Assembly: GCA_963674695.2 (NCBI GenBank) | Contig: CAXXGI010000001.1 | Location: 224,001-288,000, forward strand | Length of the DNA stretch: 64,000 nucleotides | Reading direction: 5' to 3' | Origin: a bacterium | GTDB taxonomy: Bacteria; UBA10199; 2-02-FULL-44-16; JAAZCA01 | In this document: piece after piece, positions 10,813 through 61,232 of the stretch | Numbering within the stretch: the stretch's first letter is position 1 | Layout: every line of letters starts with the position of its first letter | Translations under genes and position numbers: made by a program | The notes under the pieces: generated by a model | What the model saw: only the letters and a program-made list of their open reading frames with translations | Database searches by the model: none | What the model was told of the DNA's origin: nothing

Positions 10813-12555
10813 ATGAGCAAGACGATCGACCAACAGATTGAAGGAATGAGACGAAGCGCTGCGACCCAAGCGATCTTTCAGCGCACCTTTCAGACCACCT
10901 GCGCAACCGATTCGCGAAAGGGGCTTGAGACAACCCTCGATCGCTTCTTCCGCTATGCCTTTCAGCACACGCTTCGAGGCCTTCACCTCGACAACCCGCG
11001 CAACCACAGCGCGGCCTTCTTCGCGACCGATTTCGGCGAGTTCTTGCGCGAACGCCGCGGCTGTCCGGAACACTGCGCCGGCTACTGGCGCAACCACATC
11101 GCGGCACTCATGCGACACACCAGCCAGTTTCCCGCGATGAAACAGGTCGCAGAGATCCGTGGGCTCATCGTGGACATCGACGACTCGGTCGTGCTGGCCA
11201 CAGCGCTGCGCGGATATCTGATGGCCATGAACGCGCTGCTCGAGAAGGGACGCGATCATCTCCTCCTGCAGCGCAACGGACGGGATGCGGTCACTCAAAT
11301 CGCCCGCGCCGATGATCTGCGCAATGTATACTCCGCGTTCACGGCACATCCGCACCTGCATCGTTTCCCCATGCGTCGACACACGCCAGACCTCAAATCG
11401 ATCGATGGACCGTTCGAAGCGATGGCAAAAGTGGCGATCCACCACCAGAGTCCACACATCGAAGAGGCGACCGCCCACTACATCGCAAACGCGATCGACG
11501 TCGTCATAAAGCACATCGAAACCTCGCTGCTGCCCCAGACGGAGAAACTCAAGGATGCCGCGGGACCGATGGTTCCGCCGCCCAATCCGGATCTCCTCTT
11601 CGACGCCATCTTCTTCGATCCGCCGATTCTCCGGGAAGAGAAACAGATGCTTCAGGACATGCTCGACGTGGTCGAACAGGTGGTGCGGCATTCCCTCGCG
11701 GTCACCTCACGCCGAACGACCGCGGTGGAACAGACCATCAACGAAGCACTCATGGATGGGTCGCTCCTCCCGAAGGTCGAAAACGAAATCGACGCGGATC
11801 CATCGGTGGAGGCGCTGCTCTATCGCAGCAAGCTCATCCTGGAAGGAAGCAAAGCAGAGAGAATCACCGCGCCAACGGCTCAAGAACTCTACAACGATCT
11901 CCATCGCATGGTCGACAACATCATCACAAAGGGGGTCGAGCAATATCGACTGACCGAGCCGGAACTGCTCAAGGCCATGCTCCATAGCACACCGGGACTC
12001 AATGCCTCCTATACGCTCTATCGCGATCGGCTCCGCCAGGACCTCCCCCTTCTGGAACATGATATCCTGCAGGAGTTCTTTCAATTCCTCTCGTTCGAAG
12101 CGGGCATCGTCATGCCCACGTCGGCCCAACACAATGGGCAGACCCATATCGCTCCGAACGAAATTCAGGCAGCGTGGTCGCGTTTCCAGATCCTGGATGT
12201 TATCCACCACGACATCAAGGACCGCCTCCTGCCCGTACAGCGTAAACGCTGGGCGATCCTCCGGCAGATCCTGCGCGGGCTTGCACACCCCACGCCGCCA
12301 CAGGGCAACGGATCATCGAACGGAACGCCAACGGGGCAGAAGATGCCAAAGACCGGCCCTGTGCATCAGGCGGAACCGCTGGCCCAGGCACCAAACCCCA
12401 GCGTCGCCGAACAGCTCATCACCGATACCCTGACCAGAAACGACACCGAAGCGCTGACGCTGGATCCGGACACCTTCAATCCCCTCGATATCAATCCCAC
12501 CCCTTTCCCAAATGAAATCGGGGTATTACCTGCCACCCCCCTCAGGTTCATATGA
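10813..12555 (+). CDS. Array gene 1: hypothetical helical protein (about 580 aa) with a Pro/Gly/Ser linker and acidic C-terminal tail
   Basis: Long ORF. Start placed at MSKTIDQQ, downstream of the promoter motif. No recognised domain. Confidence 0.8.
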   Translation: MSKTIDQQIEGMRRSAATQAIFQRTFQTTCATDSRKGLETTLDRFFRYAFQHTLRGLHLDNPRNHSAAFFATDFGEFLRERRGCPEHCAGYWRNHIAALMRHTSQFPAMKQVAEIRGLIVDIDDSVVLATALRGYLMAMNALLEKGRDHLLLQRNGRDAVTQIARADDLRNVYSAFTAHPHLHRFPMRRHTPDLKSIDGPFEAMAKVAIHHQSPHIEEATAHYIANAIDVVIKHIETSLLPQTEKLKDAAGPMVPPPNPDLLFDAIFFDPPILREEKQMLQDMLDVVEQVVRHSLAVTSRRTTAVEQTINEALMDGSLLPKVENEIDADPSVEALLYRSKLILEGSKAERITAPTAQELYNDLHRMVDNIITKGVEQYRLTEPELLKAMLHSTPGLNASYTLYRDRLRQDLPLLEHDILQEFFQFLSFEAGIVMPTSAQHNGQTHIAPNEIQAAWSRFQILDVIHHDIKDRLLPVQRKRWAILRQILRGLAHPTPPQGNGSSNGTPTGQKMPKTGPVHQAEPLAQAPNPSVAEQLITDTLTRNDTEALTLDPDTFNPLDINPTPFPNEIGVLPATPLRFI

Positions 12556-12688
12556 TAGGTATCACTCGTTTTCCTTTCACAGAAAAACCGCTTGAATGTC
12601 GTCGCATAATATGGTCTGTCCCGTTATCCGACCCTCGTTCTGGGCGTGATGACAGCTCTGTCATTTTTTGACTGAGGAGGAACCCTTC

Positions 12689-59690: not shown

Positions 59691-59921
59691 CGCCCGATAC
59701 CTGATCGTGTAGAAGCCGTGCTCGAATCATGGCAAAGGCTTGTCGTTCCGGCCTTTGGCAACACCCCTCCCTTCCCGGGAGGACAGCGTTGCGGCAGAGG
59801 CCACACCTCTGTCCCCCTCATTATCATTACAACTGAGCATTCCCCCGTCACGATACGCACGCATCGTTTCATGCACATGGCCTGCATCGATGCCAACAAC
59901 CGTGAAAGAGACGAAAACGTT

Positions 59922-61232
59922 ATGTCGAAGATAGACCCCAAAGAGCTGCTTCCGCCCTGGTGGCACGACCGCCCCGACCACCTGTCGGCGCACGATGAAA
60001 CGCTGCGCGAAACGTATCTCCGCGAGCGCGGAGGTGAAGACGGCTTTCGCGAGGCGCGCATCGGGTTCAAGGAACACCTGCTCGAGGGGGTGCTCGTCCG
60101 AAACGACCGCGGCATCGCGCGTCTCTTCGTCGATCTGCGCTCGGGATCGGCCGGCACCACGACCGTGCGTTCCGCCTTCCTTCGATTCCTGGGACAGGGA
60201 AGCGACCCCGACGGTCATCGCACGTCCAAGGAAAGACCCAACATCGTCGTCCCTCTCGCACAGACGATCGGACGCTTTGATGCCACCGAAATGGCCACGC
60301 ATGCGCTCTGTCAGGGCGCTCAGTCCGTCTTCAACCGAACACAGCAAATCACCGACGAGGAAACCTATATCGACACCTGGACGGCCTACCGCAACCTGAT
60401 GCTCGCCGCCACCGGGTCGCTGCGACATGAGCTGATCTCACCGCAGAAGCAGCATGCGATCGGTTCGGAAAACCATCTGCGCACCGTTCACGAACGCCTG
60501 GCACAACTCGAAACGATCTTCGAACTGGCCAAACTCTTTCCCCATGACCGGCTGCGAAACGATCCGCTCCATCGAACATGGGCCACCGCCTTCGTCGGCG
60601 GCCAGCGCGCAAAACTCGCCAACAGCATGTGGGCGATACAGATGCTGCGCGAACAGATCGACCGCGGCCGGGCCCAACAAAAGCACCTCACCTTTGCCGC
60701 CCAGGCCATTGTCGCGCTCCATGATCCGCTCGATCATATCCGCATGTCCTATGTGCGCGAAGACAGCATCTGGCCGTTCGTCCTGATCGAGTTGCCCAGC
60801 GAGGACAAACTGCAGGCCTTCAATCCCATCGCCCTGCGAGAGATGGTGGATCGGATCGTCTATGCCGCAGGGACAGCAGGCGCACAGCGAGGGCGGGCGA
60901 CATCGCTCTGGGTCTACTGGGATGTCGATCGGCGCGAGCTCTCCTTCACCGATGAAACCTCGACCCGCGGCGCACTCGACGCCTTTGCGGATGGAGCGCA
61001 GCGGGACTGGCTGGAGGCACTCGCCCCGGTTTTGGGAAATGAGGGCGCACTCGCCCTGGAGCATGACCATGACGGTCACGTCGAAGCGGTGGTGATCACC
61101 GTACCGCAGCAGGAAGCGATCGCCGCGGAGCTACCTCCTGAGGAGTTCAACGAAGGCGCCGTGGACCTCGAGGCCTTTAATCTCCCCGCCGCAACACCAC
61201 CGGCCTATGCCTTCACCACCCTCAGACTGTAA
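59922..61232 (+). CDS. Array gene 10: hypothetical protein (about 436 aa), degenerate histidine kinase-like, short acidic tail
   Basis: H-box-like LRHELISP, followed by a HATPase_c-like pattern that lacks the N/G-box residues. The start codon is uncertain. Confidence 0.7.
   Translation: MSKIDPKELLPPWWHDRPDHLSAHDETLRETYLRERGGEDGFREARIGFKEHLLEGVLVRNDRGIARLFVDLRSGSAGTTTVRSAFLRFLGQGSDPDGHRTSKERPNIVVPLAQTIGRFDATEMATHALCQGAQSVFNRTQQITDEETYIDTWTAYRNLMLAATGSLRHELISPQKQHAIGSENHLRTVHERLAQLETIFELAKLFPHDRLRNDPLHRTWATAFVGGQRAKLANSMWAIQMLREQIDRGRAQQKHLTFAAQAIVALHDPLDHIRMSYVREDSIWPFVLIELPSEDKLQAFNPIALREMVDRIVYAAGTAGAQRGRATSLWVYWDVDRRELSFTDETSTRGALDAFADGAQRDWLEALAPVLGNEGALALEHDHDGHVEAVVITVPQQEAIAAELPPEEFNEGAVDLEAFNLPAATPPAYAFTTLRL

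Follow-up and report, generated by a model that had tools for sequence, protein, structure and literature searches.

Why should ten neighbouring genes with largely unrelated products encode proteins that end in a similar way? This question is raised by a 64,000-nucleotide stretch of bacterial DNA (contig CAXXGI010000001.1, positions 224,001 to 288,000; below, the window), in which ten consecutive open reading frames (ORFs), numbered g1 to g10, occupy positions 10813-61232 of the plus strand. An earlier note on this DNA had drawn attention to the array and to a C-terminal linker and tail common to its products, and its account of ten consecutive plus-strand genes is borne out by the coordinates. 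The tail is a non-random module that is portable between unrelated proteins. We give roughly even odds (about 0.5) to the reading that it directs export or targeting from the chain end and that the array belongs to an effector arsenal. The analysis covered the source genome (G000; 3.03 Mb in three contigs, C1-C3, completeness rating 100%), in which 2,214 genes were called for this work, and a comparison sample of 41 genomes of the class, namely G000 and 40 relatives (G001 and so on).

The module begins with a flexible-looking linker. In g1 to g8, residues G, S, T, P and N make up 16-19 of the 20 positions in the best-scoring span, in agreement with the linker claimed for these eight genes. For g9 and g10 the scores are 11 and 7, and the proteome median is 9 (proteins of at least 200 amino acids, aa); of the shorter linker plus tail that had been proposed for these two, the tail holds, weakly in g10, and the linker does not. 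The tails had also been described as rich in D and E, which proved wrong: the last 70 aa contain 8.5-17.2% D/E compared with 10.6-15.2% in the protein bodies, so there is no enrichment. The actual bias is a depletion of K and R, as the same note had correctly seen, with 0-4.3% K+R in the last 70 aa against 9.5-12.7% in the bodies. Met exceeds the body value in 8/10 tails (exceptions g1 and g10), which fits the description of most tails as Met-rich, and the recurring motif pairs and C-terminal endings quoted at the time are all present in the translations. Furthermore, g4, g5, g6 and g8 end in K/R-free runs of 76-102 aa. C-terminal runs of 80 aa or more are expected in 0.14 proteins per proteome. 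For a minimum length of 60 aa, 34 of 1867 proteins qualify where 1.5 are expected, some of these 34 belonging to a different, Cys-rich acidic class.

Similarity of the tails to each other was compared with chance in several ways, and the outcome depends on the method. Pairwise comparison against composition-matched shuffles is weak overall: the mean z is 0.82, with 8 of 45 pairs above 2 and three above 3 (g5-g6, g4-g5 and, at z 5.3, g5-g7). Profile tests, in contrast, are strong. When each of 12 tails of the PLVVE type was left out in turn, eight ranked first of about 1,700 other C-termini and the others ranked 2, 8, 25 and 27; the window members of this set are g3 (rank 1 of 1722), g8 (rank 1 of 1709) and g2 (rank 8 of 1709). 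A model of the last 42 aa, built from 16 tails, always placed two untrained tail proteins among the three best non-training C-termini, and just 8/16 left-out tails ranked 7 or better. The pattern P[LI]VV occurs nine times at 50-66 residues before the C-terminus, compared with 1.65 expected. The tail can be described as a mosaic of short blocks, in which PLVVE is followed by DP with two hydrophobic residues and G, then by GA[DE]xF, and finally by an uncharged end rich in Met, Pro and Ala. Iterative jackhmmer searches from seven single tails spread to no more than one partner each, and a first seed hidden Markov model of the tails recovered nothing beyond its own seeds. A pattern for the start of the linker, a basic residue followed by GGG, was also tried and was abandoned, as it matched just five tail proteins.

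Tails of this kind are found well beyond the window, which the earlier note had named as a result that would support its proposal. A filter that tolerates up to three K+R among the final 60 residues and requires a linker score of 15/20 or more picks 17 of the 1,649 proteins with a length of 200 aa or above, g1 to g8 among them; on reading, three of the nine picks outside g1 to g8 are clearly of another kind. By hand, and partly by eye, a set of about 32 C-tail proteins was curated from the filter matches and a listing of K/R-free runs. These proteins are encoded at no fewer than 12 loci and account for 35,821 aa, or 4.1% of all residues. Carriers outside the window include HAD, HATPase_c (three proteins), ABC1 kinase, eukaryote-type UDP-glucose pyrophosphorylase (UDPGP) and pentapeptide proteins (two) as well as a cNMP-binding plus metallo-beta-lactamase protein, so the domains are those of cytoplasmic enzyme types. 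Their N-termini are ordinary, with the first charged residue at a median position of 3.5, the same as in the rest of the proteome. The content of Cys is 0.27% in the 32 proteins and 1.33% in the rest (Mann-Whitney p 1.5e-11). An obvious Sec or Tat signal had been said to be absent from the window proteins, and hydropathy supports this: none of g1 to g10 has a hydrophobic N-terminal segment (maximum Kyte-Doolittle value at most 1.25, whereas 24% of the proteome reaches at least 2.2). This check covered the ten window proteins of the 32. The Cys depletion, together with the lack of a Sec/Tat-like N-terminus in these ten, makes the C-tail proteins look secreted.

Database searches returned very little. 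No Pfam family matches the tail, NCBIfam, searched with 10 of the 32 tails, had no relevant match at E values as high as 10, and the tail profile A1 had no match in the 40 relatives. Among 1.84 billion representative proteins, the same profile matched 11 of the proteins of G000 itself and one internal off-target (P0011). As far as these searches reach, the tail module appears to be undescribed so far.

A mirror image of the module was found at the other chain end. In 27 other proteins of G000, tip and stalk, and sometimes a linker, precede the body: the first 11-29 residues are uncharged, a K/R-free acidic stretch extends to residue 40-90, and at least two of these proteins have a G/S/P linker after the stalk. 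This N-class has a Cys content of 0.46%, and its members are mostly without a Pfam family. A MalQ paralog was considered as a further member and was dropped as ambiguous. None of the 27 has a long K/R-free C-terminus; the module occupies one chain end only. Residues that were not used for selecting the classes are biased in both: in the tips of the two classes Pro reaches 9.2 and 10.9%, Met 5.5 and 10.2% and Phe 6.2 and 6.9%, compared with 4.7, 2.6 and 4.0% in the proteome. The log-odds of the N- and C-class correlate at 0.81 for tips and 0.89 for stalks, values that are partly inflated by the selection on charge. Examples of the N-class are seven paralogs of 550-620 aa at C3:388417-408068, a gene at C1:139390-140766 that adjoins sctV, and C3:806148-809393. 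When searched with one paralog, the family of seven was absent from the 40 relatives and thus confined to G000 among the 41 genomes.

Enzymes of glycogen metabolism carry the module in both forms. The N-terminal form is present on the sole glycogen synthase (GlgA) and on an extra phosphoglucomutase, and the C-terminal form on the sole UDPGP. In the relatives, 11 glgA loci were examined, and none of the seven ORFs with a readable start has the N-terminal extension. A precedent exists in Chlamydia trachomatis. According to one report, GlgA and the phosphoglucomutase MrsA of this organism have functional type III secretion (T3S) signals in a heterologous assay, all other glycogen enzymes except GlgC have them as well, and GlgA uses UDP-glucose (PMC4829429). 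T3S signals in GlgA and phosphoglucomutase are also reported in a second source (PMC9251005).

The module is retained in relatives. The family of giant proteins to which g5, g6 and g8 belong is present in 12 of the 41 genomes (11 of the 40 relatives). Twelve loci were fetched, and the giant homologs that could be read to the C-terminus, in G001, G006, G007, G008 and G012 (five genomes of the family or order), all close with a G/S/P linker and a tail. The same ends are seen on other long ORFs in G010, G016 and G018 and on a g7-like protein in G005. Neighbours of the giants in relatives carry linker and tail too, with genome-specific motifs. The tails are acidic in G000, G001, G010 and G008, whereas in G012, G007, G006, G018 and G016 they are neutral or basic and still rich in Met and Pro. 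The term acidic, used in the earlier note, therefore describes the tails of this genus, and K/R-free fits better, as equivalent tails in other genera of the family are neutral or basic. The tail architecture predates the tail sequence.

A common promoter motif was also found. The bipartite motif CGCAAC-N13-17-[CG]GA[TAC]A, whose second half we take to resemble the -10 element of sigma-28 promoters, occurs in the 250 nt preceding 85 of the 2,214 genes. It precedes 9/32 C-tail genes (odds ratio 10.8, p 1.6e-6) and 8/28 N-class genes (p 5.6e-6), the latter counted with the MalQ paralog still included. In the window there are three matches only, upstream of g5, g6 and g8 (Table 1). A wider-spaced form precedes two genes of the T3S cluster, and this cluster encodes a FliA/WhiG-like sigma factor (C3:8530-9399), whose score of 132 bits does not reach the curated cut-off of 189.6.

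Candidate machines for export were searched in the whole genome. A type III secretion system (T3SS) is encoded at C3:4-24 kb, where a YscJ-like lipoprotein, FliG-like and FliH/SctL proteins, an ATPase with T3SS_ATPase_C, FliJ/SctO-like, FliN/SctQ-like and FliO-like proteins, SctR (FliP; C3:17159), SctT (Bac_export_1) and SycD/LcrH-like chaperones were found. The gene sctV (C1:140901-143066, with the FHIPEP match at C1:140970-142961) is detached from this cluster and adjoins secA. Matched parts thus comprise SctV, SctR, SctT, SctJ, SctN, SctL, SctQ-like, FliJ/SctO-like and SycD-like; the FliJ-, FliO- and SycD/LcrH-like matches fall below their curated cut-offs. The system was called non-flagellar, no search for flagellin having been made. 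In addition, G000 has a type II secretion system (T2SS), a type IV pilus, a Tad cluster and five TolC-like OEP genes. TssC gave no match. Type IV secretion had been suggested by analogy with the Dot/Icm system, and this route is unlikely since neither VirB4 (PF03135, 0 matches in G000, although a very divergent DotO could escape this family) nor VirD4 (PF02534, 0 matches) was found. All four T2SSE ATPases of G000 belong to the T2SS, type IV pilus and Tad clusters, with no spare one of the VirB11/DotB type. The suggested analogy with cargo loading of encapsulins fits poorly as well: the shell family PF04454 had 0 matches in G000 with positive control genomes, microcompartment shells not having been searched.

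The Tad/Flp cluster lies at C2:685246-692453, 7-25 kb from two tail-bearing genes, and encodes RcpC, a secretin, TadA with a long N-terminal extension, TadB and TadC. RcpC is present in 22/41 genomes and in all 13 genomes of the family. It was not found in G016, G018 and G019 (completeness 94, 83 and 81%), though giant homologs are present there, and in G016 and G018 linker-plus-tail ends were seen. A Kil-like Tad apparatus is therefore an unlikely route for the tail proteins.

The module consists of three parts. A flexible G/S/T/P linker is followed by a K/R-free stalk of about 40 aa, whose net charge in this genus is acidic, and the chain closes with an uncharged tip of 15-20 aa in which Met, Pro and Ala are abundant. 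In our reading the module would be a label for export or targeting, placed at the end of the chain, and its carriers would form a secreted effector arsenal. Such a shared label had been proposed in the earlier note; the set of 32 proteins, the Cys depletion, the mirror class, the promoter motif and the T3SS strengthen this proposal and do not prove it. A T3SS-linked route, with the module working from either chain end, is the leading guess, though a tentative one, as the T3SS is the only candidate one-step machine and the N-terminal form looks like a classical T3S signal. In its most specific and rather doubtful version, a flagellum-like non-flagellar T3SS would recognise a tip and stalk defined by composition at either end and would export about 32 proteins, including the giants of 3,200-3,800 aa. 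If this were true, the module would be the first C-terminal T3SS signal, and a secreted glycogen pathway (phosphoglucomutase, UDPGP and glycogen synthase) would exist outside the Chlamydiae.

Several points weigh against export, and against a T3SS as its machine. To our knowledge, all T3SS signals are N-terminal and none is C-terminal; among the matches listed in a literature search for C-terminal ones were only papers on type IV secretion (T4SS) or on prediction. An N-terminal signal of the T3SS type, that is, at least 12 uncharged residues, is present in just 1/32 C-tail proteins (g5, whose uncharged N-terminus extends over 22 residues), whereas the 27-protein N-class does have it. The change of tail charge between genera, set against an extremely conserved SctV, is awkward for one conserved receptor. 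Co-occurrence cannot discriminate either, because FHIPEP is found in 40/41 genomes of the class and the giants in 12/41. The promoter motif precedes 68 other genes, among them SMC-like, RpoD-like and lipoprotein genes as judged by reading their sequences, and so does not define an effector-specific regulon. As each is encoded by a single gene, GlgA and UDPGP may be needed inside the cell. Finally, both classes were set partly by eye and by composition thresholds, and g9 and above all g10 are marginal members of the C-tail set.

The tail might instead act after delivery, by binding a membrane or a factor of a host or prey, with export depending on another part of the protein. The stalk motifs (DP with two hydrophobics and G; GA[DE]xF) are kept across the genera of G005 and G000, an uncharged Met/Pro-rich tip could interact with lipids, and the differing charge of tails beside a conserved T3SS core is easily accepted by this explanation. 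We nevertheless consider it unlikely: with ordinary N-termini in all C-tail proteins except the one that resembles the N-class, no alternative export signal is visible, and an N-terminal mirror version is hard to explain by target binding.

A function inside the producer is similarly improbable. The module could dock its carriers on a hub, scaffold or condensate, or could be a degron for an AAA+ unfoldase or protease. AAA+ unfoldases and proteases accept tags at either terminus, and a linker with a conserved tip follows the logic of the tails of SSB and FtsZ; the occurrence of the module at either end and on the sole copies of GlgA and UDPGP would suit such a role. Docking or degradation leaves unexplained, however, the strong Cys depletion of the whole proteins, the fact that most carriers are orphans or giants and their effector-like scatter over at least 12 loci, and no hub candidate was found.

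Type I secretion (T1SS), in which an ATP-binding cassette (ABC) transporter, a membrane fusion protein (MFP) and a TolC-like channel would read the tail, is very unlikely, and the analogy drawn with it in the earlier note fits poorly. The C-terminal position, the length of roughly 60 aa, the giant Cys-poor carriers and the five TolC-like genes match this system, whereas no RTX or other Pfam repeats were found in g1 to g10, no ABC or MFP gene flanks the array, and the N-terminal mirror class is left unexplained. The composition of T1SS signals is opposite to the Met and Pro enrichment of the tails.

That the tails are fast-evolving disordered ends without specific function, spread by duplication and drift, is the least probable explanation, for although the mean pairwise z of 0.82, the silence of profile A1 in the 40 relatives and its restriction to G000 among the representative proteins (apart from the off-target) could be read in this way, the leave-one-out ranks, the positional enrichment of motifs and the strict terminal placement argue for selection, as do the retention of linker and tail on giant homologs across genera, the enrichment of the promoter motif and the Cys depletion.

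Several known systems resemble the module in part. The E-block of Dot/Icm substrates in Legionella and Coxiella is an uncleaved, net acidic C-terminal signal with hydrophobic residues at its end, common to hundreds of unrelated effectors scattered over the genome. The tails described here are net acidic through loss of K and R, D/E being no more frequent than in the bodies, and have uncharged hydrophobic ends; they differ in their length (a linker and 60-70 aa, two to three times the 20-35 aa of the Dot/Icm signal), in their Met/Pro richness and in having an N-terminal mirror form. N-terminal T3S signals are also uncharged, disordered ends, rich in S, T, I, P and A, that are defined by composition rather than by sequence, although the present module is C-terminal and has a long K/R-free stalk and a linker. 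As in Chlamydia (PMC4829429), GlgA and phosphoglucomutase are carriers, here of the N-terminal form.

Signals of the HlyA or LapA type share with the tails some 50-60 uncleaved C-terminal residues on very large Cys-poor proteins; the composition, the cytoplasmic-type enzyme cargo and the lack of RTX repeats are different here. Cargo peptides of encapsulins and microcompartments are short, are joined by a flexible linker and are found at either terminus of unrelated proteins, but cargo of 3,200-3,800 aa would not fit, in addition to the shell gene not being found. Lineage-specific C-terminal tags on many proteins are also known as C-terminal sorting domains (among them PEP-CTERM, MYXO-CTERM and the C-terminal domain, CTD, of the type IX secretion system, T9SS). 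These need a signal peptide, for which g1 to g10 give no indication, and end in a membrane helix with a basic cluster or in a folded beta domain, and the NCBIfam search of the ten tails gave no such match.

The array itself encodes three giant paralogs, an SF2 helicase, an alpha/beta hydrolase and five orphans (Table 1). The relationship of g5, g6 and g8, recognised in the earlier note as three giant helical paralogs, is confirmed by identities of 31% over 2644 aa, 27% over 1710 aa and 27% over 1681 aa. The helicase and hydrolase assignments were likewise right: g7 matches ResIII (3e-10) and DEAD, and g9 matches Hydrolase_4 (3.9e-9) and Abhydrolase_1. A kinase-like protein that had been listed among the ten was not found by Pfam, Protein Data Bank (PDB) sequence or Atlas searches. 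Pfam has no family for the other eight proteins, PDB sequence searches with g1, g3 and g10 gave no match, an Atlas search with g1 gave no usable match, and g4 found none but itself among 5.8 billion cluster representatives. An AlphaFold2 model of the conserved core of the giants, taken from g5, is mostly helical (pLDDT 70, pTM 0.36), and Foldseek found no match to it in the PDB at E up to 0.001. By its tail, g10 is the least convincing member of the array.

Table 1. Features of the window and, in the last three rows, glycogen-enzyme genes elsewhere on contig C3 that carry the module
Feature	Position	Strand	Remarks
S41 peptidase, PDZ domain, lipoprotein signal	8812-10614	-	divergent from g1
g1, orphan, 580 aa	10813-12555	+	ATG at 10813 (ORF opens with TTG at 10723); no Pfam match
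g1 linker and tail	~12277-12552	+	linker 16/20 at -92; tail K+R 4.3%, Met 1.4%
g2, orphan, 542 aa	12668-14296	+	linker and PLVVE-type tail ~14057-14293; member of alignment A1
g3, orphan, 1412 aa	14307-18545	+	zero Cys; linker and PLVVE-type tail ~18240-18542
g4, orphan, 373 aa	18655-19776	+	zero Cys; linker and tail ~19546-19773; C-terminal K/R-free run 76 aa
Sigma-28-like bipartite motif	19815-19841	+	ends 41 nt upstream of g5
g5, giant helical paralog, 3209 aa	19882-29511	+	linker and tail ~29245-29508
Sigma-28-like bipartite motif	29660-29686	+	ends 17 nt upstream of g6
g6, giant paralog, 3770 aa	29703-41015	+	linker and tail ~40707-41012; last 70 aa 20% Met
g7, SF2 helicase-like, 1346 aa	41208-45248	+	zero Cys; linker and tail ~45003-45245
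Sigma-28-like bipartite motif	45258-45284	+	ends 214 nt upstream of g8
g8, giant paralog, 3622 aa	45498-56366	+	linker and PLVVE-type tail ~56013-56363
g9, alpha/beta hydrolase, 1099 aa	56391-59690	+	K/R-free 52-aa tail ~59532-59687; no linker (11/20)
g10, orphan, 504 aa	59718-61232	+	weak tail ~61050-61229; K+R 1.4% (last 70 aa), zero Met; no linker
Pyruvyl transferase	61242-62603	-	real gene under shadow ORF
MiaB-like radical SAM enzyme	62757-63998	-	real gene under shadow ORF
GlgA	C3:784255-785979		carries module
Phosphoglucomutase	C3:428348-430432		carries module
UDPGP	C3:826146-828482		carries module

On the minus strand upstream of the array are genes for the S41/PDZ lipoprotein peptidase, a radical SAM/DUF2344 protein and RNase G. 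The peptidase was considered as a processor of the tails and was rejected, given its lipoprotein signal and its absence from the syntenic loci of relatives. Its position next to g1 is probably coincidental, since in those genomes the giant gene has no such neighbour. The gene order RNase G, radical SAM, giant is conserved in G012, G007, G006 and G011, and partly in G008, so the array arose by local expansion from a single ancestral giant gene. Downstream, a plus-strand ORF at 61269-64184 is a shadow ORF; its part within the window (61269-63998) is a 910-aa open frame with a good codon score.

Three further observations were made. The C-terminal half of g7 (window 43008-45245) contains a domain of about 140 aa (query residues ~320-465) that is tandemly repeated in proteins from G026, G010 and G005. 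One continuous open frame of 12,808 aa, Cys-rich at its C-terminus, is found at C2:526741-565167 and belongs to a separate acidic, Cys-rich class that is probably extracellular. Ankyrin, a marker of eukaryotic hosts, was searched and not found.

Terminal signals determine which proteins a bacterium exports, and the recognition of the Dot/Icm E-block and of the T9SS CTD each opened up whole effector repertoires. In the present genome, about 59 proteins, 32 at the C-terminus and 27 at the N-terminus, bear a label that is recognisable by its composition. If this label drives export, it would provide a ready-made effector catalogue for an uncultured small-genome lineage of unknown lifestyle and a rare case of one signal architecture that is used at either chain end, and secreted glycogen enzymes would have arisen in parallel with, and independently of, those of Chlamydia. 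Failing that, it would still represent an undescribed docking module that operates across the proteome.

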